Notes: generated by a model not told the origin, from the letters alone. 64,000 nt of DNA from Amphiscolops sp. MND2022 (GCA_964187785.1 OZ076409.1:10728001-10792000); one strand, 5' to 3'. Numbered from the stretch's first letter, positions 27,617 through 56,537 are shown. Numbers and translations: made by a program.

Positions 27617-27994
27617 TAGTCTGCGCTTTTTGACAAAAGTGCCCGACTATTACATTGGCTAGTTTTTTTTACTTTTTTGTCAAACCACAGAGTTTACCCT
27701 GTATGTACCACTTTTTGGTACAGAGGTTAATCGGTTTAGTGGAACTCAGCAGTCGCAGGTTCGAGTCCCTGATTTGACTAGAAACTTTTTCCTGCATTTG
27801 CAAAACCGAACGATACTGAAAGGAAAGTCTTTCGGTTTTGTAAGACTTTTTCACGAAAGTTTTTTAACGCCTCCAAAGCGTGCCTCCTATTTTTGAAATT
27901 TTGCAACAAACTGAACTTTCCGAAAAACTCAAAAGTACCCCTTTTACAGTTTTCGGGATTACAGCTTTAGGCTAAATTTTTCGTCTTCAAACTA
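27617..27994 (+). mobile_element. DINE-1/Helentron-like repeat interrupted by LTR element 1
   Basis: Begins TTTTTAGTCTGCGC...CCCGACTA like other copies and runs up to the TSD of element 1. Confidence 0.5.
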
Positions 27995-30233
27995 TGTCGG
28001 ACCCGGGTGTGTGGGCCGGCTTTGAAGGACCTTTCGAACTTGATGGTCGATTTTCACCGTCTGTTTTGCTTATGACTGCCATCATTAAGTCCTTCAGTTG
28101 ACTAAACTCACTTTGTAACTCGTTTATTTTCCTCTCGTAACTTTCTCTTATTTCAGACAACTGAGACGAGATATCTGAAGTTTCATTGCTATCGGAGTCA
28201 TTGGCAGATGACTGGGCCATGTCTGGGTCAGTTGGAACAGGTGTTTCTAACGAGGAACTAATAATTTTACCACTTCTGAGTTCAGTACCTTGTTCTGGGG
28301 TCATATAGACGAGTGAAAAGAGTTATGAGTGAAGGCTGAATTATTTGAGGTGTTATTGCGATGTATTTTGCTGTTTTTCTGATTTTATTATCTCTAATTC
28401 ACTAAACTTGAACAGAGATGTTTTATCGATGATTAGTACAAATAAGCAAGTCGTAAGGAAAAGTAGTAGGAAATTAACAAGGTGAATAGGAAAGTTCATC
28501 CAATGTTCATCGCAACAGTAAGTGCGTCAAAGGAATTACTCAGTTTTCAGTGTTTTAGTTTCTGAAGATGAAAATGCGATGTATTTTTCGAGTAAACTTC
28601 GACGTGAGATATCTTACTGGATGGTAGCTTGTCACAATTTCGGTCTCAGTAATCGCTAATGGAGGTCCAAATTACAGCAGTTCACGTGTCTTTTCGGTTG
28701 GTAAGACGCTAAATCTCTTACCAACCTTCTCTCATTGGCTGTTGCCAGCTGGTGTTAAAATGGTATGTCACGTGACCGGTGTTGTAAACTGCCGCAAGAT
28801 GGCTTAGCACCATGGTAAATCTACATATGCAAATGATAATTAGTCATTAGTTTACAAGATGTCGCAATTGCCTGCACATAACACAATGGTTGCCATAGCA
28901 ACGAAAATGCATCAAAAGTAATCGATATCACACTAATTTCAGGCTAGATCAAGTTACATTATATCACAGGATGGGAGAATGATGATTTTCCAATTAGAAA
29001 CAACAGTAAATCGATGCATATAAAACCAAAGGTGAATATGTGATGAATTATGACCTTATTTGTTGATTTTCAAGTCTAGTTTAGCTCTGGGATGAATGTG
29101 CGATGAAATGTAGTCTTTCTCGCTCGAAAATCAACACTTTTTAAATCAACGATGGTAAAAGGATGAACTCTCCCCGAAAATAGCTAATTCCCAGCACTAG
29201 TGAAATTGGCGATGAATTCAGGATGAATTCACTCGATAAAACAGGTGAAACAGCTAATTCTGCAGTAAAGACAATTGCACGATGAGTTTAGGATGAACTT
29301 GTCAGTTAAAACAGCAAATATCAAGGCAATACAAATTGGCGATGAGTTTAGGATGAACTCAGCCCAAAATTCAGCTAATTCTAGCACAAGTTGAACTAGC
29401 GATGAATTAGCGATGAACTTTTGCAATAAATCTGCCAAATGTAGCGCAAGCTAAATTGACGATGAACTAGTGATGAACTAGTCTAATAAAACAGATATCC
29501 AGCACTTCACTCTTTTTTAGGATGAATTAAAGATGTACTTTCTCATTTCTTACTGTTACTAGTCAGGACGATGAAATATGGATGTGTTATGCTCTTTAAG
29601 AAATGAGAAGCACATTGAAAGTTAGTAACTACAATACGGCGATGAGTATGGGATGTTTTTCATGCATTTTAAAGTCCCGTGAGATCCGCTGATGGATCAT
29701 TAAATAAAATCAAATAAATGTCCCAATTTTTGTTCAACCGCAATCTTGGCGATGTGATTGCGATGAACTTCGGCAAAATAGCACTAATTTCACTGGTACG
29801 TCAAGCTGAAAGATCACTAAGTCTGCTGATGGATTAGTGATGAATTTTTCGTGAAATTCGTCACGACTACAAGCTCTGAGGCGGGGAGCTAGTAGAAGTT
29901 ATACGTCTCATCATTTAAGCATCCTTCGGTCCAGTCTGACCGGAAAATACTTCTCTCCCTTGTCGTGACGAACCAATATTGAATAAGATAGCACATTAAA
30001 GGCCATTGGCAAGATCATTTGTGCGGACACCGGAACTAGAGCGCTCAGTATTAAATAAATATATATAGCTCAAACTCAGGGGGGGATAGGGATTAAGGTA
30101 CAAATAACGTAGGGTTGCTCACAACCATGGCTCTTATTATATGACATCATATTGCCCATATCTAAGTACATAAGACATAATATTTACATTACAGATATTT
30201 AGTAGATTATATTTCCATCATGCTGGCATGACA
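27995..30233 (-). repeat. 3' LTR of element 1
   Basis: TGTCGG...ATGACA; near-identical to 45099-47337. Confidence 0.97.
28970..29845. repeat. About 60-bp-period array of GATG-N7-GATG doublets in the LTR (also at about 46074-46949)
   Basis: Doublets start at 28970, 29091, 29151, 29211, 29281, 29341, 29401, 29461, 29521, 29570, 29641, 29751 and 29828. Confidence 0.9.
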
Positions 30234-31402
30234 CTCCCGGGGGTGGGATTTGGACTGAGAGTGCAGGGGCCAAATGTGCAGAGGATGGTTGTCTCGGCGT
30301 TGGCTTCGACTGTTTCCTTCGTTTGTTGGGGAGAAAATGCCCTTCGTTAGTTCTGAATTTGCATGTCCTTCGTTTGTTCTGTCCTGTGAGAGCTTCTCTG
30401 AGAAGAGGACCTTCGGTAATCGTCATTTCTGGCATCATCCTGGGTGATTTCGGTTAAAATGTTCGACGCGGCAACTCTAATTCTTGGCCCATCGAATGTC
30501 CGCTGATCTGCATTATATTGGTCGTCATGCTTTTGTCGGGAGCTCGGTTTGTTGATTATTTCGGTAGAAATCTCGATTTCCTGGAGAAAAGTTTTCCCCC
30601 CAGGCCGCCTACGCTGAGTAAACATTCAAGGCGTCTTCATTGACAAATTCGCAGTGAGTTGTCGCCGCTATTCGTCTAATTGCAAATTCTCGGGATGAAT
30701 GAACGATGAATTGTTTGCTCAGCGAGACATCGATGCTGGTTTAGCGGAACGGCTCGCGCCGCTGCTTTGTTTATTCGCGATGGAAAGGAGATGAATCGTC
30801 GTCATAGCCACTGTCAAAAGTTACTTCCGTTGCTCGACTTTGAGTGATGAGAAAGAGATGAATTCGTCGCCATAGCAACTGTTGCTCGATCTGATTGGCT
30901 GAGACTGGATTTATAACTGAAGGAAATTACAACCGGTTGTCAGCAGCATTCTCATCCATAAATCATCCTCCATTCAAGTCGGTTTGAAAATCGCCACGAT
31001 TTCCTTTGCGCGTTTCCGCTCAACTTCGTCGGTATTGATCTGAGACTGGCAGCTGTCAACAAATCAAATACTTGAAGTTTTTTGTCAAGTCTTAGGAGGG
31101 GACGATCCATTTTCAGAGAAAGCTTGAGCTGGCTGTACTGGGAAGAAAAGTGATGTCAGTATTTGAAATCGGAGAGTTTTTCATCGATTTTTCATCTTCT
31201 GAATTCAAGTATTTGATTAACATGGCATTCAAGCTGCGTCGCGCTCTTTGAAATCTTCTATTGAATTTGTTCTTCCGTAATCATGGTTGATCAGGCCATT
31301 TAATTACTGATCAAATTCTCTGTTCCTGAATTCTTCGATTTCTTTCCTTCTTTCACCTTCTTCCATTCTTTTCAGATTGTTTGTTTTGCAATTCAGTTCG
31401 AG

Positions 31403-34400
31403 ATGTCAGACATTCATTCAGTCTACTCCTTACCAGATACCGAGGTCACAGAAAGTAAGTGCACTAGTTTTTTCTTTTCTTCACAAACGGGTTAGGGACA
31501 ACTAGGTACTGAAAATACGTCTTGCCTTAGCTGACTCAGTCCATTCTGTTGGCATCGTATCTGAGTTGACGACGCTTCAAACTGTGCCGCCGCAAGAGAC
31601 TCCAATAGCCCAACCAGCTATCGCTGAGCCTCAGGTTGACCCTGGTAGTCAGCCTAATCAAGAGTTCAATGTCCCGTATCTTCCGCAGTGTAAGTATTAT
31701 CCTTCCGGCCTTCAGTTCAGTCTTCGAATCCCTCATATCTCATCCTTACTTCGTCCAGTAGTTGACTCCTTTCGTACGGTGTTTCAGACCACTACCCTTG
31801 GTATGCCTCTCTCGGCAGTATCACCTTCGGGTGGTATGACCGCCACATGCGGGACATGCTGCGGGACAGTATCCAGCAATTCAGTGAGTTTGTCGATTTC
31901 TCTTTCATTCTTCTAGGCGATCGTCCGAACACTCCGATGTGATTCCGATGTAAACATCTCATCTGCATGTAGTGTCCTTTGTGGTCGATTACCCATGTAA
32001 TTCATTTTCAAGATGAATTTAGGATGTGTTATGAACATTCACCGTTCTTCATGACTGGCTCGCTGTAAATCTCATTCTTTGAAGATGAGTTTTGGATGAA
32101 ATCTTCTCCAGTCTTTTTCTTCGCGCGGCGTACGCGCTCTTTCTTCTCCAATCGTCGTCGCTCAGTAACCGTTCCTTTTTCAGGCCCCACACCGATTCAC
32201 GCGCCGAGGCCTCGGCCCATCACCTATTCCATTGGAATAGGGACTAGTGATCACCAGGCTGAGAACATTGATGCTAGTACTCAGGGAGGGCCTCCTCAAC
32301 TTGACTTGTCCTCGTTCCTTCAGGACTTGTCATTCGGGAGTGTAAGTTCTCCTGTCAGGCAGGCGCCAGTGTCTGTACTGTCGCCAGTGTTGAGGGGTTC
32401 TTTCGCCGCTAGTAGTCCTCCTCCTGCTCGTATCACTCTCGACGCTGCTGTAAATGCTGTTGTCGATTGCGTGGATGCAGTCATCGATGCCGTTGTCGAT
32501 ACCTCTGATCGAGCAGTCCAGGCCGTTGTGGAAGTCAGTGAGTCCTCCACCTTCCATGATCCTCCTGTTGAGGAACCTGTCATCGTTGCCTCTTCTTCCG
32601 TTCCTGCTCTTTCAGTCAGCGGCACTGATACACTTGGTGATGCTTCCGTGAGTACTGCCGGCAGAGCTGAGACCCTACTTGAAGTCCCTGGTGACTTCTC
32701 GTTCGACAGCCTTCTGCCTGCTGAACCTGACCGAGAATCTGCTTCTCCCAGTGCTGCTCTCATGTCGACCGTGGCTTCTCCCATGGGACCCAATCTACTG
32801 GATAGTGATGACGAACCAATCGCGTCCCGTCTGCCAGGTTAACTAAACAGCTTTAAACTGGTGAAGTATCTGATCAGTAGATTTTTCATTCATTTCCTTC
32901 TTCGCTTTTGCTTTCACTAGCATTTTTCACGTTTTTCTTCTTTTCTATCCATTTTTCATCGTTCTTCTGTTTTCACTATATGGTTTTCTGCAGTTTTCCA
33001 TTTTCCATCACATTCTCATCGTCAAAAGTTGTTGAACAATAGTTTTTCGCTCTCTAGTCCTTTTTTAGAAATTTCATCTCTTTTACATCTTTAAAATTTT
33101 CTCTTTTCGGTTTTCGCTATTTTTCGGTGTTTTCTTTTCAGTTTTCATCTCTTTTTCATCGTTAAGTTGTTTTCGCTCTAAAATATCTCAATTTTTGGTT
33201 CAAAGTCGTTCTATTTATCTCTTTTCCATCGTTCAAGTTTTTCATTCTTTAAGGTTTCCATTTTTCATTCTGGTGGTGTGCAAAACACATCTCTTTTTCA
33301 TCTTTTCGTTTTTTTTTCGTTTTTCGCTTATATTTCCCGATGAAAATATTATTTTACATCATTTTTTCATCACTCCGGGTGACTTTTGGAAGTTTGCGTT
33401 GGTTTTTTCATTTTTCAGTTTTTAAAGGATTATTTTAAGATGATTTTGGAATTTCGTGGGAACGTGGTCGTTTTTAGTGGATGTGCTATGTGTTGGCATG
33501 TGATTATTTCTGTTTGTAGGGCGAAAAGTGATCAAGTCATGGTGGTTTACTCATGGATACTGTGGGCTTGCACTGGGCTATGCACGAAGTCATCAATCGC
33601 GGCTATCATTCGTTCGATGTTTACTGTGCAAGCGTGATATCAATGTTGGCAGCCGTGGTATCACTACATTCATGGAGCATTGACGTGGGCTCCGTCACCA
33701 TCGTTTGGACTGCCTGATTCGTTTGTTTCGGGATTTACCGTTGCGGCGACGCGACGGGTCATTGATGAGTAATGAAGAGAGTGTGGAGTGTAGGAGCAGC
33801 CTGGGCGGTGCAATGGTGCCGTTCATTGAGACGTGCCCCTCCTTTAGTGTACTGGAGGTGTTTGAGTTGGAAGCAGCTGGACGACCTGTGTGGGGGGACG
33901 AGGAGGAAGAGGATCTATTGTGTGAAAAGACGGTGCATCTGTTCGTGTGCCTGGTTATTGACTCAATCTATCGTGGGTGTCAGTTCGCCAGCGTAACGAG
34001 TTTGTGGGAGGTGATGGTTGCGTCAGAGCCGCAACATGCCTCTCTTTTCGGTGTTACTTGCGAAGTGAATGACGTGATGGTAATTCGTATTTCTTTTTGT
34101 TTTTTGTTTCATGAAGATTCGTGTAGATGAAAAAATACATTTGGTGGGTGGTTTTCCATAGGTAGTTTTGAAGCTTGGGTAGGGGGGATTTTCAACTATT
34201 AATTGTGTCGGGTTATTTTTAAGCGGATAGTGATTTAATGTATAGTAAAGTTGACGTTTGTTTTTAGAGTGTGGTTCTACTGTGTTTGTGGCCGTACGCG
34301 ATGAAGAGGCTAATCACTCTGTGGTCTAACTGTGGGTTCACTAGCTTTCATGTGGCTGTTGGGCAGGGGCGAGTGACTGGCACGGTCACAATGTGTTCTC

Positions 34401-36183
34401 TAGAAGGGATCAGTCAGTACTGTGTCTTCAGTTTTGGTCTGTCTCAGGATTGGGAAAAACGAGTTGTCACGTGGATGATTAACATGTGGTGTTGTTTGCT
34501 TGGAGAACCTGTTCCACTTGGACTGTGTTGCGATGCGTTGCCACAGCTGGGTGGACTGTTCCAAGCCGCCACTGGCGTTGGGTCACTGGAGTTGAAGACG
34601 CTGTCATTGTGTGAAATCAGTCGGACAATTGTGGACGTGGGAGGGCGGGCGCTCGGCGGGACTGATATTCACGTGGTGCTGAATCATCTGCAGAAAAGAC
34701 TGAAGGGATATGTCAGGGATCCTCTGTTGTTGAGCTGCCCTCATCTGTTGCAGGTCGGTGTAGTCTTCCGCTTTTATTTGAGTGTTACTATGAGTTGTGC
34801 TCTTTGTCTGTTTCTGTTGTTTGTATATTGGTAGTAGTTTGTATTGTAATATTTTGTTTTATCTATGTGGAGCTTGTTATGTTTTGTTTAGGCGATTTTA
34901 TCCGGGGAAGTCTACGTGTGGACTCTTGCTGATGTGTGCGACGAATTACGTGCCAATTGGGCAGAAGTGCTGTGTCTAGTTCGATTCGCTTCGGGAGACG
35001 GGCCAGTAGATGCGTTGGATCTTACTTTGAGGGTGGAATTTGGGATCCCAATCAGGCTTCGGGCACTTAGTATGGTCTATCGTGCTTGTTAGTATGTTGT
35101 ATACTTACCGGGTGGGAAGTTTATGTAGTTGGCCGTTTTTACGTATTCGAGTGTTTAATCAATTCGCATTTTTCGGGAAGGGAACGGGGGGGGGGGTTAT
35201 TCCGATTATTTACTGTGTATAGAATTGGTGTGTTTTTCATTTCAGTAGTGACGTCGTACGAAAAGAGTTTCGGGTCTTCATCATTGCGGAGTTGCTACTG
35301 GGCGATCGAGAGTGCATTCTTTGTGAAACGCCTGCTGACTCTACTGGTTGACGAAGAGAGCCTGCCCACTGATCTGGATATCCGTGGGTGGTTGTTTGTG
35401 GATGTAGACAGTTATGTTGTGTCAGCGACTAAGTTACAAGCCCTTATCGAGAGTTTCAGCTCGGATGAGAATTTGACGGAAGATGTGGCTGTGTATGAAG
35501 AGGATGTGTCCCGGGTGCCTAATTTCTTATTGTCTATCGTCAGGAACGTATTATTGCTACCAGGGATTCGTGACGATCTTGCTTTCGCGCGAAGTGTCTT
35601 TAGTTCACCCAGACTGGTTTGTGTGGCGGAAACTGATCTTGTGGCGAAAATTCGCAATTTTACTGGATTACTTGTGGAAATGGGGCGGATCAGTTTAGTC
35701 GAACAGGATCGAATGGAGCTCGGATTTCTGGAATTTATAAGGGCTTTTCGGTGCGAGCCTAGGCCAGCTGGGGCGACTGCCGAGTATTCAGCCGTTGATC
35801 TGTTGCGTTGCTGTTCCAGTCGCGGGTCACAGAGTCTGTTACAACTTGTCTTTTGCCTGGGAGGGGTGGTGCAGAGCACTTGCAATACCATATGCGAAGG
35901 GATCGGGCACCTGCCGAGCGATGTCATGAGCTGTGTATGTGCAGTAATCTCTGGTTATTTGTCTGCTAATCATGTGCGAAGTTACGGTAGTGTCAGTGGG
36001 CCACTGTTGGAAGAAGTGATGGAGTCGCACAGAAGGCTCGTTGATCTATCAGAGATTACAGAGGGCATGTTGTGGGACGACGTCGGTATCGTGGCTGGGG
36101 AAGATTATCGTCTCCAGTTATATGCTAGTCTTGGTTACGATGTGACCGGGGAGCGGGCTGCCAGTCCCGAGATTGGAAACTGA
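31403..36183 (+). CDS. Predicted spliced gene antisense to element 1: disordered N-terminus, zinc finger, hAT-transposase-like body lacking obvious catalytic residues (about 1028 codons, one in-frame TGA)
   Basis: Exons 31403-31454, 31531-31689, 31759-31800, 32184-32837, 33520-34079, 34268-34753, 34892-35087, 35246-36183. All introns are GT-AG and phase-compatible; total 3087 nt. C-x2-C-x16-H-x5-H finger; AATAAA at 36284. Confidence 0.75.
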
Positions 36184-36283
36184 CTTTTTAACTGTTTATG
36201 TTGTTCATTGTTTTGCTATATAATTTGTTGTATTTACATATTAGTGTAGTTATTCATATGTTGGGAGACCCATGAAAAAGGTC

Positions 36284-36289
36284 AATAAA
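36284..36289 (+). terminator. Candidate polyadenylation signal of the antisense gene
   Basis: AATAAA about 100 nt after the stop codon. Confidence 0.45.
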
Positions 36290-38820
36290 TGGAAAGCACA
36301 GTAACGACCATAGTGAGAATGATACAAATCCAGATGCTACGGCGGAAAGATCGGTAGTAGTGTATTTACAACATTAGTTATTTTGGTGCCCAATATCTGT
36401 TTTTCTATGGAGTTGTTAGTGATAGTTACAGAGGATATTAAGTACGTGTAAATCAACAATTTCGTCCAACAGTTCACTTGAGGCATTGTCTTCTGTGTTT
36501 TTGTATCATAGATCATCGGTGGCGCTTCGCTTTTTTGGTGTTCATCGTTATTACATCTCGTGGGAGTGTAGGTAATTCGTCAGCGTTTGATTTTTGATTT
36601 CTCATCTCCTTTTCATCACGTTTTCCTCGGTCGACCGAGCGACGTCGCGAAAACTGTTTTCTCATCTTTTTTACATCGTTCGTTATATGCGATTCATTGC
36701 ATGTTTGTTACATGTGATTTTTCTACATAGTTCATCGTTTTTTCATCTTGCGGTTTCATGTTATCATTTTGTCGAGTTATTTGTTGTAGTTCATCGTTTT
36801 TGCATCGCGAGTTTGACTTGCCCGTTTTTGTCCAATTTGCGGCATAGTTCATCTTCTTTTCATCGTGGTTTTGAAATGTACGAATTTTTGCGTGTTTTCG
36901 ATGTTATTTGTCTATAGCGTAAGCGGGGGTTGCATTTTTCATGTCTGAGGGAAATTTTTATTAATATTGCGGTGTTTTCGGAGTGTTTTCTTCATGTATT
37001 TTAGCGTTATACGGTGTGGATCGTTTGTCGTGTTTTTGAAATTGCATGAATTTTAGTGTACATGTGTATTAAGCATCATCATTGCGTTTTGAATTTGTCA
37101 TCTTTTGAACATCATTGCATGAGTCATTTTTCGGAGTTTTGTGACTACCGCTTGCGTGGAAGTCGAAATAGATGTTCACTCAGCAGTGGTATTGGTACCC
37201 TGTAGGCGTGCAAGGTACTTGGGGTTCCAATCCAAAGCTGTGTGAGTGGAGCTGCTGCGCTCCTTTCAGATGAACGAATTCTCTTAGTTTCACACTGTAT
37301 GTAGTCTGCATGTTATTTTTTACGATCGGTTGTTGTCTTTAAACGTCCAAATGGGTTTATCCATTTGACGGTTCATTTGCTCAATCAAGGTAATTGATAT
37401 CTACGGCTTTGCATGTTTCGAGTTTTTAATTAGGTGATATTGTGTGTTCATGTTCGCATCATTGCATAAATTATGTTTTAAATGGGTGGCCCCATTATGT
37501 GCATGTTGTGTTATTTTTCGTCGGTTGTTTCATGTATTGATAATTTTATTTTTGTTCGTGAATTGGGACAGGGCTTTGTCGTCACAAAGCCCCTACAAAA
37601 CTAAACTGAGAATCCACTGATCATCATAGGTTTCCCCATGAGTCACAGCTTCATCCGGAATGGTAGTGAGCACCCCAGATCAACCAACAAGCACTCTTTT
37701 CAGAGAATTGCCCGCCAGCACGAAGGAATGATGTCGGTATTTGGCGAGGCTATTTTAGTTATTCGAATCGGATGTTGCTAGGAGTTGCTCTTTCCATTCT
37801 CCCAATTTGTGTTATTCTCGTGATTTTCATTTGATTGCATGTGTCTTAATCGGGTGCATGTAATCTCGATCGTTCGTTTCTTTTTGGTTCGCCTAGGTTT
37901 ATGGTGATTTGGTGTGAATTGCATATGTTATCTCGTTCATTTTTGAACGGTACATGTATATTTCGTGTGTTTCTCATTTGTATTGCATGTAGTTTGGAAT
38001 TGTCAATTTGTTTTTCGTGACGTCATTGATTTGGCAGGTCTTTGAACCTTACATGTATTGCTCATTTCATTTATGCCGTGGCATAATTCTATTTGCATGA
38101 TTCGAAATAAGGTCGGCTGTTTGTTATCGTTTCGTGAAGTTACATGTTGTTTGAGAATTAGCTGTTTTATTGTGATGTTATGTTGATGGTGTTTCCCATC
38201 ACAAGGAGTTTTTGGTAAGTCATCAAATATTTTCGAATTTTCATTTAGACTAAATTCATCGTTTTGACATCCTCCAGCGAAGCTAGAGTATTGTGTCAGG
38301 CTAACGATAAATTCGGTCACGATTTGATGGTAGTTTCCATCACAAAATCATCTCGTTAATTGATTTCATATAATGTCTGAATAATTGAATCGAGTTCATC
38401 GCTATTTCATCCTCTAGCCGAGCTAGAGTATTATGATAGCATGAACTTGAGTGCGATCGTATTGTGATGGCATTTTCCATCTCAAATACATCGCTAGTAG
38501 ATATTGCATGTTGATTGGTCGAAATTTTGACTAAGTTCATCACTTTTTCATCTCTCGTGTGTCTGAGCTAAATTTTCATGTGATTTCATCCTTTTTTCAT
38601 CTCGAAAATTTCATGTTCCGTTTTTTCTGGTTTTTTGCTCGTTTTTCATCCGTTTTACATCGTGTTTTGTTTTTATGCGTTTTTCATGTGATTTTTAGTA
38701 ACTTTTCATCCATTTTACATCTTCATGTTTGTTTTAAGTTGAAATTGCATGTAATTGACTGGTTTTTGAGACCTTTTCATCCTTAACACATCGTGTGTTT
38801 GGAAATGTGGTTTTTCATGG

Positions 38821-41800
38821 CTAAATCGTTACGTTTACTTTGTTGGTCTTTCTCAGAGAGTTTCTGGCTGATGTAATCTCATGAATAAGGAAGTCAGGAT
38901 ATTTTTTCGGTGTAGGGTTTTCGCGTAACCTGTACCTACTTTGATTGTTTCTAGAAGGTCTAGAACTCATCCTTTCCTCATCTTCAGTTTGCGTGTTTGT
39001 CGGTTGTGACTGATTTTCGTGTTGTTCGTCTGTCAAAGGTACTCTTATCCTACTCTCATCGCGGGGGGGCGGTAGGATAATTTCCTCCTGCGTTCCAAAT
39101 CTAACTGTAGGTGGTCTAAAGTTGTTGTGGTCAGTTTCTACTTGATGATAATCTATTCTCGTGGTTATTTCTGGTGGAATTACTTGTGGACCGTGTTGTT
39201 CTTGTACCTGCGGAATTGTTTCTTCTGAAGGCTCTTCTTCGACTAAGTCTTGGTCTAGATTGTCATTCTCATTCTGATCTACTTCGTCGGTCGTCGGAAT
39301 ATTCGAGTCGAAAATGTCCGTGTCTTCAACCCTTTCAGTGTCTGGGTAGAGATGTTTGGACACGTTGATGTCATCAATCGGAAATTCCGGTTTGCACAAT
39401 CTCAGTCGCATGCGATGTACGCACTGAGTTTGGTGTGTGCCTACTTTGCGGATGATGTAGTTGCTATCGGATAGCACTTTAATCACCTTGTACGGTCCTT
39501 TCCAATGGAAAGTTTTAAACTCTTCTTTGCTTCTCTGAGAGTCGTACTTAGGATCTAGTAGGAACACAAATTCATTCACCTTCAGTGGCTGTGCTCGTGC
39601 TTTTCTGTCATAGTACGTTTTGTACTTATGATAGGCGGAAATGATGTTATCTAGATTGTCTCTGAAGATGAAGTTCATTTTGTCTAGAATTTCATTCACG
39701 TCCTTGCACTTTGTTTCAGCCGGTTTGTTTGCGTTTCGGAATTGCAGATCTAGTGAGTTGTATGGTGTTCTTCCGTGGAAAATTTCAGTTGGTGAACATT
39801 CAGTGAATCATGATACGTTGTGTTATGGGCCATGATTGCTATGTCGACATAGCGGTCCCATTGTGGTCTGTCTGCGTTTACACTAATTTTAAGGATCTTT
39901 TTCAGTTTCGCGTGCGTTCTCTCCACCATGCCTATTGTCTGTGCGTGCTTTATCGTGGCATGTGAGATGTGAATATCAGCCGCTTTCGCGATTTCAGACA
40001 GAAGTTCAGCCGTAAACGCCGTGCCCTTGTCCGTCAGAATGTGCTTGGGCACATACGCGTGTTTCGTGAAGATCGACAGTAATCCTCTGACTACGGAATG
40101 TGTATCAGGTCTCTTCAGCGGAACGGCGAACAGGTAGCGCGAAAAAACATCAACAGCCGTCAGAATGTGCGTAAAACCGTTCGACGCCGGGAGTGGACCA
40201 ACGATGTCTATTTCCAACAGGTCTTCTGGTCCGTCGCACGGGTCGTAGATTTTTTGTAACGGTGGACGTAGTTGCGTTTCTTTTACACTTTTAGATTTCA
40301 TGCAGTTTTCACATCCTTCAAGGACTTTTTGAACTTTACAGGCTAAGTTAGGAGAGTAATATCTTTTACGAAGTTCGTACAACATTTTCTTCAAACCGGG
40401 GTGTCCTTGCACTGGACTGTTATGCAGAGTCCTAATTATTTTCAAGATACAGTCTTCAGGAACAACTAACTGCTTGTGAGACTCCAGTCCCGTGTGATCA
40501 AAAAACTGTCTGTACAGGACACCGTTTACAACTTGTAGACGTTTTCGATTTTTGTGCAACTTTTGAAAAAACTGATCTTGCATATTAACTGGGTGTTGCA
40601 AAATTTCAGTACCTTCCAAAAATCTAATCATTTTTTGAATAACCCAGTTATTTTTCTGGACCTGAATTAGATCGATCCCCTCAGCAGGGCTAACCTGACT
40701 CATTACCGGGTGTGATAATGATACTTTACGGATGAATTGTGATAGTTGAATCGGCTCGTCCACGTCTGTGAGGCGGTACGTCAGATGGTTGTCAGTTGCG
40801 AAGTCATCTGAGGCCGCTGTTCTCTCACAGTTGGTGAACTTCATCCCTTTCCCATCGTCTTGAGCCACGTCGGTGCCAGGTGCCAAGTTCATCTCTTTGA
40901 CATCCTTCTGGCGTTTGCATCTGAGTGGTTCGCTCGTGGGAAAGTAATCAGGCTCGTCTTCCTCCTGTTTTGGTGTACGGGAGGCGATGTCGATCTCGAT
41001 TCTGTGAATTGGAATAGTATCAGTCAATTTTAAATGAACACGGTCTTCAGGTCTAATCTCAAGCCGAGATAAGTAATCCGCTGCGGGATTTTCAACTCCT
41101 GGTACATGTGCTAGTAAAAAATTGAACTGAAGGGTTTGGTCACAAAAATTCCAAAGTGAAGGCGGGATATGCTTCGCCTGAAAAAATCTAGTCAAGGCCT
41201 TATTGTCAGTCATAACAATGATGGGTTTTTTCGCACCCCACAAAATGTGGCCAAATTCATCGAAGGCAAAGTGCATAGCTAAAAACTCTTTGGCATACAT
41301 TGTTAGAGACATCTGGCCGCCCTGAAATTTCTTAGAGCCAAATGCAACAGGGGCGTATGTATGTTTGACTGACGGGTCAGCATAATCCTCGATTAACAAC
41401 ACATAGCCGGCAGCGTGTTCGCTGGCGTCACACATGATTACCAATTGTTTATCTGGTAATGGCAATTTCAGAGACACTTTTGTTGCTTTTAACAAACTTT
41501 CATTAATTTCAAAAATAGCATCTTTATGTTGCTGGTTCAGTTTGAAAGGGACGTCTTTCTTGATGAGTTCCTGTAAACAACAAGTTTTATCAGCTAGACG
41601 GGGAATATAAGACCTGTAAAAGTTTACAAAACCAAGATAACGTTGCAACGCTTTCACTGAATTGGGGGGTTTCAACTTGGTTAAATAATCTGTTACGCGT
41701 TTTTCAATGGGAGCAATACCAGTGCTAGAAATGGTTTTTCCTAGGTACTCAATTTGTTTTTGTCCAAATTCACATTTATTCATGCTAAGTTTAAGACCAG

Positions 41801-43912
41801 CTTTGTACAATTGCTGAAAAACAAGTTCAAGGTTAGTAATCAATTCTTCGGGTGAGTGTGCTGCGATTCCAATATCATCAACATATTGGGCACACCGGTC
41901 CGCTTTGACCAAGGGGTCCAAATACTCACGGATTACGCTTGTGAATGCTGACAAAGAACGATTAAGACCTTGTGCTAGACGTAAAAATGCAAAAGTTCTA
42001 GACCCAAAATTAAAAGATAACAGTTGGACAGATTGCTCATCCGCCATTGGAATACAATGGTAGGCCTGGGAACAATCAAGTTTGCAGAAGTACTTTTTCC
42101 CGGCCATGTGTTGGGCAGCGTCAGCAATTGTTGTTACGGGATGGTTGTGCTCACCGTAATCGTTTTTGATCAGGTGGTTTATTCTTCTCAAGTCAACTAA
42201 AATCCTCAATTTACCATTAGGTTTACGTTGAGCAAATATCGGGGAAGAGTATTTGCTGTGAGGTAAAGTAGTTATAATCCCGTACTCTTGCATTAGAGCT
42301 AATTCCACGAGCAAATCGTCCTTCAAATTTATCGGAGTCGGGAGACTTTGTGAATAAACCGGTTCTTCATGTTGAGGTGTTAACTTAACTTTAAAATCAG
42401 TGTTCATGCCAATATCAAAACGATGTCTAGCAAAAATGGAGTTGTACTTTACCAGCAACTCCTCTACCTGTAACCGTTGAGACGGAGTAAGAAGCGAGTC
42501 GTCCCAGTTGAAGTTCTTCAGGAAGTTCATCCGTTGTTCATCGGATTGGGACGGGTCAAGCTTCTCGAGCTCTCGCAGTGCCAGAATCTCATCATAAATT
42601 CGTCGCTCAATTGCGTTGAGTTTGTCTGGCTCACTGCACGTCTCGGGAGTTGGGTACCACTTGGTTGACTTCATTTCAGGGTTCACGAACAGTTGGTTGA
42701 TCACTGCGTCGGCCTCATCTGGGTACTTGGTGATCAAGTTCAAGTGTTCCACTGGCATGGGCGTGATGTTTGCCGCCTGGTGTGGTGTCGGGATGCGAAA
42801 GTGTGCCAGAGTGGTGTTGGCTTCAAGTGTGTACGTGTGGTTGTTTGGGTTGGTGACCTGGATTGTCGTCTTGCCCTCGTCTAGGTCAACCAAAGCTGGG
42901 GAAACAAGCAAACACGTCTTTCGCATGAATCCAGGTGAGCCCTCAACTGTACCAGTTGTAAGTGAGATGTCCGCGTCACTGTGGACCTGTATCATCACTT
43001 GGTGGAGAGGGGGATCACTGTTCTGGTACTGGAACACAAATCAATTAAACCAGTTTTGAATCTGTTATTCTTTTGCTGTCTAACTTGCATGGACATCATG
43101 TGATTAGGGAAGTGGACAAGGTGGTTTTTGATGTCTAAATTGACTGAGTACTTTTCAAAAAAGGACATTCCAATTAAAATTGTTCCCATTGTTGGAAGGA
43201 TTAGGAACGTTTCTTCAAAGACTTTTCCAGCAACGTAAAATCTAAGTAAGACTTGCTTACGCACTGGGTCTAAGTTCCCGTTTGCTATTTGAATTTTGAA
43301 ATTCGGAGGGGGGAGTTCTTGAAGGATGGCTTCTGGATGAGCCGTTGTTATTTTTCGCAATTCTGCTTCAGACATTGCGCTTTGAATGGCGCCTGTATCT
43401 AAAAGTGCGCTGTTTTCATATTTGTCAAACTGAAGAGGGACGTAAAGCATTTTATCTTTCTTGTTTAAGTGTAAAGTGGGACTGAGAATGTGAATTTCTG
43501 TTTTAGTTGCATGTTTTTTAACTTTTGAAACGTTAATACTACTCTGTTTTGCATGTTTTTTAATACTAAGCCGTTTGTCGATTGTTGAGTGTGAAGTCGA
43601 GTCGTCGTCTAGATGGTGGGTTTCCATCTCTTTGGCATCTTCCACCTGCCTCATGGTGTTTGGTTGCCAGTTCATCGTTTGTTCATCGTTGATTTCAGCG
43701 AGTGGAGAAAAGCGGCTGCCGTTGAGTTGACGTGCATTTCCCATCGCTTTTTCATCGTTGGAAAGTCTTCGCTGATAGACGTCATCAGCTTTTGGTCGTT
43801 TGTCCAGTGAAGGCTGCCATTTCTTCATTGGACGGTTGCAAGTCTGTTGTTGAGTCGTAAGTCGTTTGTCGCGCGTGTCGTTGGTAGCGGACGGAAATCG
43901 TGGCGGAATCAA
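38821..43912 (-). CDS. pol: Pol polyprotein of element 1 (PR, RT, RNase H, integrase) with two single-base frameshifts
   Basis: PR LLDTGA; RT LDCSQAY and YVDD; RNase H CDAS and TDNKAL; IN HHCC plus DIVGP, TDKG and VER. Frame breaks near 43010 and 39800. Confidence 0.95.
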
Positions 43913-45408
43913 AAACCCTGATTTATGTCTTCATCAGAGTAGCTTTCTTGGTCTTCTTCTTCGGCAACTGCTTGCATAGGATTCATCGGCTTTTGCTGTC
44001 GTTTTAAATCTTGTCGTCTAGCCTTGTTGTCGTCTTGTGAGTTCGTTGTGTATGGAATCTTTCCATATGCAGAGCTGCTTTCCTTGGGAATTCGTCGTCT
44101 GCAGTCTCTTGCAGAGTGTCCGGTGTAACCGCAAATCTGGCAGACCAACTTCGGATTGTATTTCGGTTTATCTGGGTCTGCTGCTTTCTTCATCGGGATT
44201 GCATCTTCCTTTTTGATGCCGTTTGCTTCGTCACGTTGGCGGGCGCGACATTCTGTTTTGCGGTGGCCTGTCTTTCCGCAGTAGAAACATTGTCCCTCGA
44301 ATCGTTTTCTTTCCGTGGTTTGCGTTGTCGTCGTTGTTGTGGGCTTCGTCGTTGTTGTTGGGGCTGAGGAGGTGACCGCGTTAAATGGTTGGATTGCCGC
44401 AGGTGGCGCGACGTACTGCTGGTACTGGTACTTGCGCATTAGGTAGGTTTTGATTTCCTCTGGGGAGCTCTCTTCTTTGTTTGCGATAGTGAGCTCTTGT
44501 TGAATCTCGACTGGCAGTTTTCCAAACAAGAACATTTTGATTACTCTGTCGGCCTCATTGCCGAAGGCTTGTTTGGCAGTCTTCTTGAGATTTTTGAGGA
44601 AATCTCCGAATGTTTCTGTTGTGGGATCATAACGTGCTTGGTCCCACTTGTAACGGGCCACTTCCTTGAGATCCTCTTTTGCAAATTCTTTTCTGAAGAG
44701 GTCGAGTACATCCTTTAGTGTTGTCATTGGCGTTATTTGGATGGATTGCCAGTATTCTATTGCGTCATCTCTCAAAAGGCTTTGAAAGAAGTGTAGTTTG
44801 TTCTCCTCGGTGATTTTGTTGGCAAGCGGGCTAAGGTGGTTGAGGAGAAGGTGTTCAAATTCGACGAATTTGTCTTTTTGGCCTCTGAAATTTGGCACGT
44901 GTGTCTGCAGTAGCTTCGTGTTGGTGGTGGTGCTTTTGATCCGTTGGGGGATCGTCTCGATTGCATTGAGTAGTCGTTCCTCATTGCTTCTGGGGGTTGA
45001 TTCTCCTTCTTCGTCTGAGTCGTCTTCTTGGTATCTTCTGAAGTTGGTGAAACTGGTTGTCGGGCGGGTGGAGCGGGTTTCTGTAACTCCTGTCACCATG
45101 TCGGACCCGGGTGTGTGGGCCGGCTTTGAAGGACCTTTCGAACTTGATGGTCGATTTTCACCGTCTGTTTTGCTTATGACTGCCATCATTAAGTCCTTCA
45201 GTTGACTAAACTCACTTTGTAACTCGTTTATTTTCCTCTCGTAACTTTCTCTTATTTCAGACAACTGAGACGAGATATCTGAAGTTTCATTGCTATCGGA
45301 GTCATTGGCAGATGACTGGGCCATGTCTGGGTCAGTTGGAACAGGTGTTTCTAACGAGGAACTAATAATTTTACCACTTCTGAGTTCAGTACCTAGTTCT
45401 GGGTTCAT
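43909..45408 (-). CDS. gag: Gag of element 1 (499 aa, two CCHC knuckles)
   Basis: CFYCGKTGHRKTEC and CQICGYTGHSARDC; capsid-like region (VPNFRG...LRDDAIEYW). Confidence 0.93.
   Translation of the reverse strand: MNPELGTELRSGKIISSSLETPVPTDPDMAQSSANDSDSNETSDISSQLSEIRESYERKINELQSEFSQLKDLMMAVISKTDGENRPSSSKGPSKPAHTPGSDMVTGVTETRSTRPTTSFTNFRRYQEDDSDEEGESTPRSNEERLLNAIETIPQRIKSTTTNTKLLQTHVPNFRGQKDKFVEFEHLLLNHLSPLANKITEENKLHFFQSLLRDDAIEYWQSIQITPMTTLKDVLDLFRKEFAKEDLKEVARYKWDQARYDPTTETFGDFLKNLKKTAKQAFGNEADRVIKMFLFGKLPVEIQQELTIANKEESSPEEIKTYLMRKYQYQQYVAPPAAIQPFNAVTSSAPTTTTKPTTTTTTQTTERKRFEGQCFYCGKTGHRKTECRARQRDEANGIKKEDAIPMKKAADPDKPKYNPKLVCQICGYTGHSARDCRRRIPKESSSAYGKIPYTTNSQDDNKARRQDLKRQQKPMNPMQAVAEEEDQESYSDEDINQGF
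43912..43918 (-). promoter_or_regulatory. Candidate -1 ribosomal frameshift heptamer G_GGU_UUU
   Basis: XXXYYYZ heptamer directly before the gag TGA; the -1 frame (TTG ATT CCG) is the pol frame. Confidence 0.75.
45086..45098 (-). other. Primer binding site of element 1 (tRNA-Leu-like)
   Basis: TGGTGACAGGAGT directly after the 5' LTR; resembles the complement of a tRNA-Leu 3' end (TGGTGTCAGGAGT, from memory). Confidence 0.7.
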
Positions 45409-47337
45409 ATAGACGAGTGAAAAGAGTTATGAGTGAAGGCTGAATTATTTGAGGTGTTATTGCGATGTATTTTGCTGTTTTTCTGATTTTATTATCTCTA
45501 ATTCACTAAACTTGAACAGAGATGTTTTATCGATGATTAGTACAAATAAGCAAGTCGTAAGGAAAAGTAGTAGGAAATTAACAAGGTGAATAGGAAAGTT
45601 CATCCAATGTTCATCGCAACAGTAAGTGCGTCAAAGGAATTACTCAGTTTTCAGTGTTTTAGTTTCTGAAGATGAAAATGCGATGTATTTTTCGAGTAAA
45701 CTTCGACGTGAGATATCTTACTGGATGGTAGCTTGTCACAATTTCGGTCTCAGTAATCGCTAATGGAGGTCCAAATTACAGCAGTTCACGTGTCTTTTCG
45801 GTTGGTAAGACGCTAAATCTCTTACCAACCTTCTCTCATTGGCTGTTGCCAGCTGGTGTTAAAATGGTATGTCACGTGACCGGTGTTGTGAACTGCCGCA
45901 AGATGGCTTAGCACCATGGTAAATCTACATATGCAAATGATAATTAGTCATTAGTTTACAAGATGTCGCAATTGCCTGCACATAACACAATGGTTGCCAT
46001 AGCAACGAAAATGCATCAAAAGTAATCGATATCACACTAATTTCAGGCTAGATCAAGTTACATTATATCACAGGATGGGAGAATGATGATTTTCCAAATA
46101 GAAACAACAGTAAATCGATGCATATAAAACCAAAGGTGAATATGTGATGAATTATGACCTTATTTGTTGATTTTCAAGTCTAGTTTAGCTCTGGGATGAA
46201 TGTGCGATGAAATGTAGTCTTTCTCGCTCGAAAATCAACACTTTTTAAATCAACGATGGTAAAAGGATGAACTCTCCCCGAAAATAGCTAATTCCCAGCA
46301 CTAGTGAAATTGGCGATGAATTCAGGATGAATTCACTCGATAAAACAGGTGAAACAGCTAATTCTGCAGTAAAGACAATTGCACGATGAGTTTAGGATGA
46401 ACTTGTCAGTTAAAACAGCAAATATCAAGGCAATACAAATTGGCGATGAGTTTAGGATGAACTCAGCCCAAAATTCAGCTAATTCTAGCACAAGTTGAAC
46501 TAGCGATGAATTAGCGATGAACTTTTGCAATAAATCTGCCAAATGTAGCGCAAGCTAAATTGACGATGAACTAGTGATGAACTAGTCTAATAAAACAGAT
46601 ATCCAGCACTTCACTCTTTTTTAGGATGAATTAAAGATGTACTTTCTCATTTCTTACTGTTACTAGTCAGGACGATGAAATATGGATGTGTTATGCTCTT
46701 TAAGAAATGAGAAGCACATTGAAAGTTAGTAACTACAATACGGCGATGAGTATGGGATGTTTTTCATGCATTTTAAAGTCCCGTGAGATCCGCTGATGGA
46801 ACATTAAATAAAATCAAATAAATGTCCCAATTTTTGTTCAACCGCAATCTTGGCGATGTGATTGCGATGAACTTCGGCAAAATAGCACTAATTTCACTGG
46901 TACGTCAAGCTGAAAGATCACTAAGTCTGCTGATGGATTAGTGATGAATTTTTCGTGAAATTCGTCACGACTACAAGCTCTGAGGCGGGGAGCTAGTAGA
47001 AGTTATACGTCTCATCATTTAAGCATCCTTCGGTCCAGTCTGACCGGAAAATACTTCTCTCCCTTGTCGTGACGAACCAATATTGAATAAGATAGCACAT
47101 TAAAGGCCATTGGCAAGATCATTTGTGCGGACACCGGAACTAGAGCGCTCAGTATTAAATAAATATATATAGCTCAAACTCAGGGGGGGATAGGGATTAA
47201 GGTACAAATAACGTAGGGTTGCTCACAACCATGGCTCTTATTATATGACATCATATTGCCCATATCTAAGTACATAAGACATAATATTTACATTACAGAT
47301 ATTTAGTAGATTATATTTCCATCATGCTGGCATGACA
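45099..47337 (-). repeat. 5' LTR of element 1
   Basis: 2239 bp, TG...CA, next to the PBS; I saw only about five substitutions versus the 3' LTR. Confidence 0.97.
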
Positions 47338-50300
47338 AACTAAGTTTTCTCAGCGGCCCAGCACGCTATATCCAGTTTTTGACGTTATATTTGACGCAAG
47401 TTGAGTTTCACTGAAGAGGAGGCCGAAGGCATGAATCGAGCAACGAACACTGATTTTGGAAAAGCCTGCTTGGCTGCGGACGTTAGATTTTCTGAAAAGT
47501 TTTTTTTTGTCACTCGTGCTGTCATGTTTCTGAAGAGCACAAGTAAAATGCAAATGTGATCAGGGACTGGCGAAAGACCTTGGGGGTGAGTAGGATGGGT
47601 GACATTAAGTTTGGAGTGGTTTCTTGACTTACAATTGTAGTACGATCAGAAAAAGTGTTCTTTTTCAACGATGGTAGTCACCAGTGTGCTTGTTGTTCTG
47701 CTTTGAGACGCACTGCGTCCAAAGTCTAAACCTCTAAAAGTGACTATAAACGCGCTTCAGCACCCACAATGCACGTAGGGCACTGAGCATGCGTGATTTC
47801 AATGAATAGTTTGCATTTAGGTGACTTTGATAGCGGTTGTAAGGAAAAACGCGATTTTTGTGTTTTTCACTACTACGTCTCGTAGACAGTTTTCCGGCAA
47901 ATCAAGAAATTTAAAATGGTCCAGCCACCGCACAAAGCACTTCAGCGAGCCTTATTAGGTGTGTCTAGTGTGAAAACGATGTCGTTGCTGTACTTTGTTA
48001 GTTTCAGACGGTGTCTATCGAGCAATTTTTGTGCAAATTTTGCAAGAATCAGCTAATTTTTCGTTAGAACGCACGTCTCTTGAACGTGAAAATCACTTCC
48101 AGACCTGCTAAGGACCTGAAAATTTCGCACAGTATACGACGCTGCTGAATCGGGAAAATTACCACCGATTGAGCTGAAATTGACTGTACGTGATTTGCTG
48201 GTGCTTGACAATCTTGTCAGGAAACACTACCATGTTGTAAAATTCACACAAGTTCGTCAAACTCACCTTCCAGGCGTCCTAGCTACGTGAAAGTTTGTGC
48301 GCGAGAGCAAATTATGCCCACATAATAGAAAAGCACAGCGGCGGGATGGCTGGATCAATATCTGGCGATTCGAGGTGACAAAATTATGATGTACCCGAGT
48401 TACCACTTTATCGGTTCAAAATTCACCAAAATGTCAATTTCTCAGCGTTGACTAGCAGCCGGCTGCTCAATTTGTACAAATCCGCTGGATCTGGTATCGT
48501 GTGTACGAAAAAGGAAGAATTTCAGTGCTGAGATACCTCCAAGGTATTGCACTATGATCAACTAAACTTCGATTTTTTTCGACACTTTCACACGATTTTT
48601 GAGCAAACATGCGGCCACGATTTCTCAATCACTTGTAATGCTAGCGCTACGAAAATTACAGCACTAACGTAACTTTTTGCGGTCTACACGATGGTTTCTT
48701 TTATTTGAAGCTGCTACTACTAAGAGAGATTTCGACCTGTCTCGGAACCCACTGGTTAGAATTAATTACGGTTTTCTGCGTTAGCAACGTTATACTCTAT
48801 ACTAACAGAAAATAGGCAAGCGAAACCTGGCAGGTTCTATATAAGTTCTCTCAAAAAACTTTCATATTACACTTTTACTGGTACTTTTTTCATAGTACCC
48901 TCACGGAACAATACTGAAATCACGTATTCTAACTAAGATTTTCTCCTTTCTTTGTTCTCGGACGTTCCGGTTTGTTTCAACAGTAGTGTGAAAAGGTGTT
49001 ACAGTGTTATTCAGGGGACTAGGGTTGATTCATGTATTATTTTTGATGTTATGTCTCACGTTTATGGCGTTCTTTTCCCAGGTCTATGCATATCAAAAGA
49101 AAAGCACTGATAACGTTTCAAATTATATTTGTGAAAACTAGAACAGGGGCGGGAAGCAGGAAAAACTCCAAGTATGACGCAAAAACGAAACAGTGTCCCT
49201 TGTGGTGCGCCATGAAAACTATTCTAGATGTAACGTCCAGCTAGTAGCGCACATCCTAGAAGTGGATAATGCCTAGGATGCTTGAACAGGAGACCAGTGT
49301 CTTACTACACCTAGACATTAGTTTTTAATTCCAAAATGATCGCCTAAGGGGACTTTTCATGCGTCAAAAGAGGGTCCACAGTTAGAGCTCCGAGGCGACG
49401 TGCCGGCACTCTCAAAGTCGGGACACGTCCCACAAGCCTGTAAAAACGAATCCTAAGGTTCCTAACGTTCCTGCGACTTCATACATACCTCCGAGGTCCA
49501 AAAACATGGTTTAGCTGAAATACATTTTATTTGCAGATAAAGATCTAAAAGTGTAAACATAGGGATCTAGTAGATCCACTACCATCACAAATCTGCTAAA
49601 TAACATGAATTAACATTGAAATACAGTGGTAACAACACTTTCTAATCTTTCATGAAGTTTGCAGAGTTTTCGGGGTGAACCATTGAAGGGTTTGGCTTCT
49701 TTTTCGGGTTTTCCAGGACATTTTCTGAAAAAGACGGCACACAACTGTGATTTTCTCTCTTCTCACACTTCTGGGGTCTCTGTCTGTGTCTTCTTCACAG
49801 TCGGGACGGGGGTGGAGAGGGTTTTTTGCATTTTTTCTGCGTCTTGTTCGATTTTCGGTACCTGCTAGGTCCACCATTTTGAATTGTCTTATTTGATATC
49901 GCACAATTTTTGAATTACAACGAAATTTTGTTTCGCTGGTGCCGGACGTTACAATTAGTTCTTCATGCTGACTAAAACCATTCGGTATCTCTTGCAGTTG
50001 CCAATCGAAAGATTGAACTGGTAACAATGCAGTATTCAAGTTTTTGATAACTTGAAAAACTCAGAATAACACATGTTAACTTGAAACCTGCAGTGCAGAT
50101 AAGGCAATAATTACAATCTGTTTGATTGATCATAATTTTCAATAGTTTTTCAATTGGTTAGATTACATTTCAGAACTGTGATAATCATTTTGAGGAATTG
50201 CATCATCTTTTTGATGCGTTCCATATTTTCAACATTTGTGATGCGGTTTTGCTGGCGTTCAGTAAATAGACCAGTTGTCTCCAATGATTGTTTTTCCCGT

Positions 50301-56251: not shown

Positions 56252-56537
56252 TATATCATAGGTCTAAAAAGGATTACCGTTAGGCTTACCAAGTGCATTG
56301 TGGGGAGAGCTTAAGGCTCATCACTCAGCTGCAATAGTACAAAGATGGTTCCATAGAGGAACCGCAACAAGTTTAAATTGTAGTTCAACTAACTAATTAG
56401 AACATAAAGATAGAAGTTATTTAACGCTACGTTACAATGTAATCATTTCATGGGATGGTTTAAGACTTCCTCCCAGGCATAACGATTATCGGGTGGGTGA
56501 ATTGAATAGGGGGGCAACAAAAAGTGTTTTGAGCGGG

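Follow-up and report, generated by a model that had tools for sequence, protein, structure and literature searches.

The closest described architecture to the one reported here is that of the plant Retand lineage. According to the accessible part of PMC11963269, Retand elements of the Ty3/gypsy type carry antisense TRP28 open reading frames, putatively encoding DNA-binding proteins, together with tandem repeats between pol and the 3' long terminal repeat (LTR), and a regulatory role has been proposed for them. A second comparable system is present in Arabidopsis, where VANDAL transposons encode VANC proteins and carry dense short motifs in their own non-coding DNA, introns and upstream regions included (PMC5735166, PMC10398659; as far as their available text goes). 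Here, a 64,000-nt stretch of DNA from Amphiscolops sp. MND2022 (GCA_964187785.1 OZ076409.1:10728001-10792000; the whole stretch is called the window, and all coordinates are counted from its first letter) was analyzed. Positions 27995–47337 constituted a single Ty3/gypsy-type LTR retrotransposon of 19.3 kb on the minus strand. Between its pol gene and its 3' LTR, a plus-strand, i.e., antisense, gene of seven exons and 1,014 codons encoding a putative zinc-finger protein could be predicted, and more than 50 doublets of the form GATG-N7-GATG(AA) were distributed across the non-coding parts of the element. It is plausible, although at somewhat less than an even chance, that this protein binds the doublets as a self-encoded regulator.

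The element resembles Retand in its long region between pol and the 3' LTR, in a conserved antisense reading frame predicted to bind DNA and in the short-repeat arrays located there (PMC11963269). However, Retand is a plant lineage whose antisense frames contain Transposase_28, whereas no Pfam family above threshold was found for the protein described here, and a Pfam match to Transposase_28 (PF04195) in particular was absent from it. The Retand repeats are family-specific in that account, whereas one invariant motif was observed here; introns are not mentioned in the available text of PMC11963269, whereas six conserved introns, two of them with arrays, were present in this gene; and in this element the arrays also fill the LTRs. 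The likeness to VANC lies in an element-encoded protein accompanied by dense short motifs, and in a protein with a conserved part and highly variable parts (PMC5735166); the placement of the VANC motifs in VANDAL21 also matches that of the doublets upstream of the antisense promoter and in introns (PMC5735166). In contrast, VANDALs are Mutator-like DNA transposons, while the host element here is an LTR retrotransposon, and VANC, as described in the accessible sources, is not a zinc-finger protein of this family. Moreover, each VANDAL family has its own VANC motif, which co-evolves with the protein, and both binding and demethylation have been demonstrated for VANC (PMC5735166); in the present system the motif is constant, and binding is a prediction.

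The gene model was derived from a multiple alignment of seven elements, namely the window copy and six diverged relatives, and transcription and splicing rest on this comparative evidence. The predicted features, all on the plus strand, were as follows.

30892..30916, plus strand: CCAAT-type box (TGATTGGCTG) and TATA-like TTATAA (30911..30916), putative antisense promoter (direct reading, alignment)
31403..31454, plus strand: exon 1 with ATG (ATG and GT donor in 7/7 elements)
31531..31689, plus strand: exon 2 (alignment)
32184..32837, plus strand: exon 3, Ser/Pro/Val/Ala/Asp-rich low-complexity N-terminal region (alignment)
33520..34079, plus strand: exon 4, BED-like Cx2Cx16Hx5H zinc finger at its 5' end (alignment)
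34268..34753, plus strand: exon 5 (alignment)
34892..35087, plus strand: exon 6 (alignment)
35246..36183, plus strand: exon 7 with stop TGA (36181..36183), predicted all-helical region without family match (alignment)

The GT/AG dinucleotides were kept at 83 of the 84 boundaries formed by six introns in seven elements. The CCAAT-type box was kept in five of the seven elements (e62 GGTTGGTTG, e83 GATTGGCCG) and TTATAA in three; the latter adjoins the box and lies 50–220 bp downstream of three doublets, and the site may function as the promoter of the antisense gene. An AATAAA signal was present downstream of exon 7 (36284–36289). The window copy contained one in-frame TGA at codon 343 (33681–33683), inside the finger, while the spliced frame was wholly open in relatives e58 (1,030 codons) and e44 (1,023 codons); one further relative had a single stop (codon 563), and the remaining three were frame-broken. 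Among young copies of exon 7, none of 30 had a stop, and the pooled pairwise ratio of nonsynonymous to synonymous polymorphism (pN/pS) was 0.36. Taken together, the kept splice sites, the frames open in two relatives, the lack of stops in the young copies and the low pN/pS show that the antisense gene is genuine and that purifying selection acted on it while the family spread. Its introns would survive retrotransposition because they are antisense to the genomic RNA that is reverse-transcribed, as can be deduced from the retrotransposition mechanism. The plus-strand open frames in 31506–36183 yielded no Pfam matches, though they were conserved. The open frame 31506–31916 had been considered as a single coding block and was rejected, as the alignment showed an exon only at 31531–31689, the remainder being conserved intron.

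Counted over both strands, the window contained 76 GATG-N7-GATG doublets, 73 of which fell inside the element; 100 dinucleotide-preserving shuffles yielded 2.05 on average and never more than 6. Within 27995–45098, which contains one LTR only, a spacer of 7 nt gave 56 matches, whereas each other spacer from 0 to 12 gave at most one; GATG was the top tetramer at spacer 7, followed by A/T runs, at 26, and by the overlapping ATGA and TGAA. The two half-sites are placed one helical turn apart, and approximately half of the first half-sites were preceded by C, giving CGATG. Successive doublets were mostly separated by 58–61 bp, in some cases by 49 or 69–71 bp. Each LTR carried 15 doublets on the plus strand and two on the minus strand. 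The arrays were located as follows (motif count).

28970..29842, plus strand: main LTR array, 13 doublets, mostly 60 bp apart
30694..30860, plus strand: three promoter-proximal doublets (30694, 30779, 30846), upstream of the antisense gene
31936..32098, plus strand: three doublets (31936, 32012, 32084) in intron 2 (31690..32183)
33006..33371, minus strand: five doublets, in inverted orientation, in intron 3 (32838..33519)
36543..37113, minus strand: downstream array 1, seven doublets, in inverted orientation
38257..38982, minus strand: downstream array 2, ten doublets, the last one in the integrase C-terminal coding region

Downstream arrays 1 and 2 sit between the antisense gene and pol. The original prediction of an antisense zinc-finger gene, a TATA-like box at 30911 and phased doublets around the LTR promoter region and the start of the gene was borne out by these results, which add the conservation of the gene, the conserved introns and the arrays within introns 2 and 3. 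Doublets were also observed in the gag-pol coding sequence, at 40842, 40890, 42528, 43625, 43673, 43742 and 44191 on the minus strand and at 43325 on the plus strand; gag-pol alone thus held eight, compared with about two expected in the whole window, and seven of the eight were oriented as in the downstream arrays.

Sequence conservation was assessed across the seven elements. In the LTR array, conservation across the six other elements reached 0.88 at the GATG cores, compared with 0.61 in the 7-nt spacer and 0.67 in the stretches that separate the doublets. The corresponding values for cores and the rest were 0.92 and 0.73 in intron 2, 0.93 and 0.63 in intron 3, 0.93 and 0.72 in downstream array 2, and 0.82 and 0.69 as well as 0.65 and 0.46 in the remaining two arrays, so that the cores exceeded their surroundings in all six arrays tested. 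Tandem Repeats Finder did not call the doublet arrays, which indicates that the sequence between the doublets has drifted while the doublets stayed. In plant Retand elements, tandem repeats are common between pol and the 3' LTR (PMC11963269, available part), and the arrays could in principle be neutral by-products of such tandem duplication that serve no sequence-specific function. The higher conservation of the cores in every array tested, the enrichment of a single spacer and the persistence of the arrays at the same places, both in lineages whose LTRs are 72–83% identical and in a second clade, make such an origin very improbable.

The gene is widespread in its own genome. Exon 7 matched at least 140 places in the 1.07-Gb assembly, most of them without stop codons, in identity groups of about 97–100, 81–83, 56–64 and 44%; its relatives ranged from 57 to 98% identity. 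Searches with the relatives P0033 and P0044 returned 119 and 132 places, respectively, in overlapping lists drawn from clade B and further lineages, and all of these genome lists are lower bounds. A profile of exon 7 recovered 76 clusters among 1.84 billion representatives, down to approximately 20% identity, all of at most 367 residues and thus single-exon calls. Longer annotated proteins containing exon 7 or the finger exon were not found, which is weak evidence.

The six diverged elements shared the same layout, with LTRs of 2.0–2.3 kb and the five conserved blocks lying on the strand opposite gag-pol; one of the six was truncated and lacked gag, most of pol and the second LTR. Doublets occurred at the same places in all seven elements, at 44–76 per 25 kb, with the common consensus GATGaaaaa..GATGAA.t. 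A clade-B copy whose exon 7 was 24.8% and finger exon 44.6% identical to those of the window also had CATC/GATG at spacer 7 as its top spaced tetramer, with 31 occurrences in 10 kb, and another cassette type (exon 7 identity, 41.9%) gave the same top spaced tetramer, with 44 doublets in 10 kb. The gene and the arrays were thus present together in nine of the nine gene-bearing elements examined, in each of which the gene belonged to the LTR element as a fixed and conserved component; the gene without arrays, one of the combinations that the original prediction had singled out for checking, did not occur among them. At the clade-B locus L049 (reverse strand; approximately 1350–1800 and 7400–8350), the doublets were often arranged as inverted quadruplets, GATG-N7-GATG, 9 nt, CATC-N7-CATC. 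In this arrangement a plus-strand doublet is followed 24 nt later by a minus-strand doublet, which would fit a symmetric oligomer recognizing double-stranded DNA.

The orientation of the doublets also bears on a possible role at the RNA level, where GAUG...GAUGAA might serve, for instance, in the export, packaging or translation of the genomic RNA or of the antisense mRNA. Within gag-pol and downstream of pol, GATG is found on the sense (minus) strand of the element, and in the 5' portion of the antisense gene it is found on the coding strand of that gene, as would suit RNA signals. However, the doublets in the LTR and in intron 3 are antisense to the transcript that overlaps them, clade-B orientations alternate 24 nt apart, and spacing by one turn with 60-bp phasing is typical of DNA-binding arrays. 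A role in RNA is therefore considered quite improbable.

The encoded protein is predicted to have approximately 1,014 residues, comprising a low-complexity Ser/Pro/acidic N-terminus, a single BED-like CCHH finger and approximately 650 largely helical residues, the last without any family match. Exons 1–3 encode 288 residues rich in Ser, Pro, Val, Ala and Asp. Within this region, at 32440–32560 on the plus strand (exon 3), consecutive short repeats rich in Asp, Ala and Val (DAAVNAVVDCVDAVIDAVVDTSDRAVQAVVEV) were noticed, which may resemble an acidic-hydrophobic activation region. At the start of exon 4, W-F is followed by C-x2-C-x16-H-x5-H; the pattern was kept in all copies read, one clade-B copy having x3 between the finger cysteines. 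Conservation was highest in the finger segment, with identities of 78, 75 and 69% compared with 64, 67 and 52% for the protein overall. With X at the stop, the window finger scored 19.3 bits against zf-BED (PF02892; E 0.0011; cut-off, 20.6 bits), and three relatives scored 15.6, 12.7 and 12.4 bits, the four scoring exons ranging from E 0.001 to 0.17. The finger is BED-like by its pattern, and family membership is not certified by the Pfam score.

hAT transposases are associated with subterminal repeats, and BED-finger proteins resemble the predicted protein in having one Cx2Cx(n)Hx(3-5)H finger with aromatic residues upstream of it. BED proteins read clustered short motifs, such as, in the case of BEAF-32, CGATA, a term that occurs in PMC5021357. 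Unlike BED and hAT proteins, the finger here stays below the zf-BED threshold, no hAT domain was found, and the gene lies inside an LTR retrotransposon. Pfam searches gave no match passing threshold in the window exons or in 33 exon 7 relatives; the hAT dimerization domain (PF05699) was not matched at E ≤ 1 in the same set, and the hAT catalytic (RNase H-like DDE) domain had no Pfam match in the sequence search, which included exons 4–6, while the fold search covered exon 7. A profile search of Protein Data Bank (PDB) sequences with exon 7 and the finger exon revealed nothing below E 0.07, and language-model look-alikes for the same two exons gave nothing usable. The AlphaFold model of exon 7 was poor with 14 sequences (predicted local distance difference test score, pLDDT, 41.7) and reached 68.4 with 33 sequences as an all-helical fold. 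Foldseek found no match to this model in the PDB at E ≤ 0.001, and the best Z in VIA-align was 5.3, to generic helical bundles. Two resemblances to hAT motifs were considered and dropped: the C-terminal GERAAS as the hAT SERxFS block, as no Pfam match was obtained in 33 members, and the H..LN.L stretch in exon 5, which was not conserved in clade B.

These results bear on the possibility that the gene and arrays are the remnant of a captured hAT-like DNA transposon, the doublets being former subterminal repeats and the protein a degenerate or active transposase. The sub-threshold score of the BED-like finger would agree with it, as would the change of strand of the doublets, which lie on the plus strand over 28417–32098, left of and in the 5' part of the gene, and on the minus strand over 33006–38982 to the right; this is reminiscent of the inverted subterminal repeats of DNA transposons. 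However, neither the exons nor the 33 relatives matched catalytic or dimerization domains in Pfam, and nothing hAT-like was seen in the fold searches with the exon 7 model. The genome is rich in canonical hAT C-terminal domains, and none of 150 scored PF05699 hits fell at loci of the antisense gene. In addition, the arrays also occupy introns and LTRs, and clade B interleaves both orientations. A captured hAT transposon is thus very improbable, and of the earlier description of the protein as zinc-finger and hAT-like, the finger pattern is retained and the hAT part is not supported, since its Pfam domains were not found and the fold matches of exon 7 were generic.

The remaining parts of the element were annotated by direct reading, self-BLAST of the window and Pfam searches, as follows.

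27990..27994, unstranded: target-site duplication AACTA, copy 1 (direct reading)
27995..30233, minus strand: 3' LTR of the minus-strand element, 2,239 bp, TG...CA (99.73% identical to the other LTR)
38821..43040, minus strand: pol, with reverse transcriptase, RNase H and integrase in two overlapping open frames (Pfam)
42995..43930, minus strand: aspartic protease frame (Pfam gag-asp_proteas)
43909..45426, minus strand: gag open frame with two CCHC knuckles, first ATG 45408..45406 (Pfam zf-CCHC)
45087..45098, minus strand: primer-binding-site-like TGGTGACAGGAG, TGG-initiated, directly after the 5' LTR and within the gag frame (direct reading)
45099..47337, minus strand: 5' LTR, bearing the same doublet array at 46074..46946 (self-BLAST and direct reading)
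47338..47342, unstranded: target-site duplication, copy 2 (direct reading)

Self-BLAST revealed direct repeats of 2243 nt at 27991–30233 and 45095–47337 with 99.73% identity, and direct reading placed the LTR limits at 27995–30233 and 45099–47337, each 2,239 bp long, with TG...CA ends and the 5-bp duplication AACTA on both flanks (27990–27994 and 47338–47342). The limits proposed at the outset, 27995–47337, were therefore exact. The element is young, i.e., recently inserted, and is a member of a large superfamily in its own genome. Pfam matches on the minus strand followed the order zf-CCHC, gag-asp_proteas, RVT_1, RT_RNaseH, Integrase_H2C2, rve and Integrase_p58_C, which is the gag-pol order of Ty3/gypsy elements. 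The first pol frame (39750–43040; 1,096 residues) contained the reverse transcriptase, RNase H and integrase domains, and the second (38821–39807) the integrase C-terminal domain. The gag frame begins inside the 5' LTR and continues across both the LTR end and the primer-binding-like site (45087–45408, minus strand); as a result, the first approximately 100 gag codons are duplicated in the 3' LTR (mirrored at 27987–28322). A similar arrangement is present in yeast Ty1.

A second, at most distantly related gypsy-like element was observed at 51947–64000 on the minus strand, the gag of which, with CCHC (63094–63999), runs off the window. Its protease lies at 62479–63090 and its reverse transcriptase, RNase H and integrase at 59223–62519, the pol being 26% identical to that of the element under study. 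Five long same-strand frames follow (57774–59219, 56541–57770, 55199–56263, 52721–55195 and 51947–52717); no Pfam match was found in these frames of approximately 2,300 residues. This neighbor contained neither the antisense gene nor any internal doublet and can serve as a weak negative control. Furthermore, a 1.4-kb direct repeat with 97.4% identity (1–1407 and 4556–5936) may represent the two LTRs of a further element that is truncated at the beginning of the window.

Comparison of window positions 32177–36180 with loci L031–L048 revealed a mosaic history. The pol of the window copy was 97–98% identical to that of two relatives whose antisense exons 4–7 were at most 70% identical in DNA and 44–62% in protein. 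The reverse was also observed, in a relative with 90% identity in pol and 74% in the LTR, yet approximately 90% in exons 4–7. This mismatch implies that the antisense cassette and the gag-pol backbone have different histories, whether because lineages recombined, because the cassette evolved at an accelerated rate, or through a combination of the two. The occurrence of near-identical backbones with differing cassettes, and of the reverse, points to recombination between lineages.

The half-sites one turn apart, the repeat of approximately 60 bp, the constraint on the cores, the use of both orientations and the inverted quadruplets of clade B together fit a dimeric or oligomeric DNA-binding protein. 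The finger protein of the element itself would be the obvious candidate, since it always accompanies the arrays, its finger is its best-conserved part, and the arrays lie in the LTRs as well as at the promoter and within introns of its gene. In the proposed mechanism, the protein would be made from the internal CCAAT/TATA promoter, enter the nucleus and bind the doublets through its finger as a dimer or higher oligomer. Such binding would mark the copies of its own superfamily and raise or protect transcription driven by the LTR as well as by the promoter of the antisense gene. The protein would then be a transactivator or anti-silencer that the element itself encodes and that acts in a positive feedback loop, and its variable remainder may be the effector part that meets host factors.

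Several observations weigh against this mechanism. The motif was the same in all nine elements and did not co-vary with the protein as exon 7 identity fell from 98 to 25%. The idea of family-specific recognition in the original prediction was therefore not supported; on these comparisons, what is conserved together is the finger and the motif. The zf-BED cut-off of 20.6 bits was reached by none of the seven finger exons, three of which had no match at E ≤ 1. Approximately eight doublets within the gag-pol coding sequence are not explained by a promoter-centered model. Finally, because relatives almost identical in pol differ so widely in the antisense protein, its variable part seems to have been exchanged, or to have evolved, independently of the arrays.

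As the motif does not co-vary with the protein, its constancy would be explained equally well by a conserved host factor. The arrays would then be enhancer- or insulator-type sites for a conserved host DNA-binding protein, and the antisense protein would have another task; for example, it might counter host defense, tether or import the pre-integration complex, or act on chromatin independently of GATG. A host factor accounts at least as well as the protein of the element itself for a motif that stays invariant while the protein falls to 25–45% identity and the cassette is swapped between backbones, and the LTR is the usual place of host-factor enhancers. The Drosophila gypsy element provides a precedent, as it carries in its non-coding part a phased array of short motifs for the host protein Su(Hw). 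In that case a host protein binds a single array in the 5' leader, and no element-encoded partner is known. However, the strict co-occurrence of gene and arrays in nine of nine elements, the conservation of the finger above the rest of the protein and the position of the arrays at the promoter and in the introns of the gene would not be expected from a host factor, which is considered the main rival, a serious but on balance unlikely explanation. Binding of the doublets by the protein of the element itself stays the plausible proposal set out above.

Among viral systems, HBZ of human T-cell leukemia virus type 1 (HTLV-1) exemplifies the antisense regulatory genes of complex retroviruses and is mentioned in PMC11963269. 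It is a small basic leucine zipper (bZIP) protein, whereas the product predicted here is a zinc-finger protein of approximately 1,014 residues from a seven-exon gene, and HBZ is not known to be accompanied by arrays of cognate doublets. The two are alike in that a regulatory-type protein lies opposite gag-pol and, for HBZ, is expressed from the 3' end of the provirus. In a literature search, with subscription journals outside its reach, neither the protein family of the antisense gene nor an animal element that combines an intron-containing antisense zinc-finger gene with arrays of cognate appearance was found to be described. LTR elements with antisense accessory genes and internal arrays are already known, and what distinguishes the present family is the unusually clean pairing of protein and motif.

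Accessory genes for self-control or escape from silencing are well documented in plants (VANC) and complex retroviruses, but hardly for animal LTR retrotransposons. The family described here constitutes a clean test case, with a short, invariant and countable motif, a single conserved finger and hundreds of young copies, and near-identical gag-pol backbones with antisense cassettes of 44–62% identity offer natural swap experiments. In the broadest form of the proposal, this animal LTR superfamily would possess its own sequence-specific regulator, in which the BED-like finger reads the more than 50 doublets and the rest forms a fast-diverging, recombining effector cassette engaged in an arms race with host silencing. 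This would amount to self-recognition of the VANC or retroviral-transactivator type, encoded in antisense so that the introns survive reverse transcription; taken as a whole, this picture is tentative and more doubtful than the binding itself. If the protein does bind the doublets, self-encoded sequence-specific regulation would have arisen independently in animal retroelements, and the family would offer a way into the question of how such elements remain active in a genome of 1 Gb.

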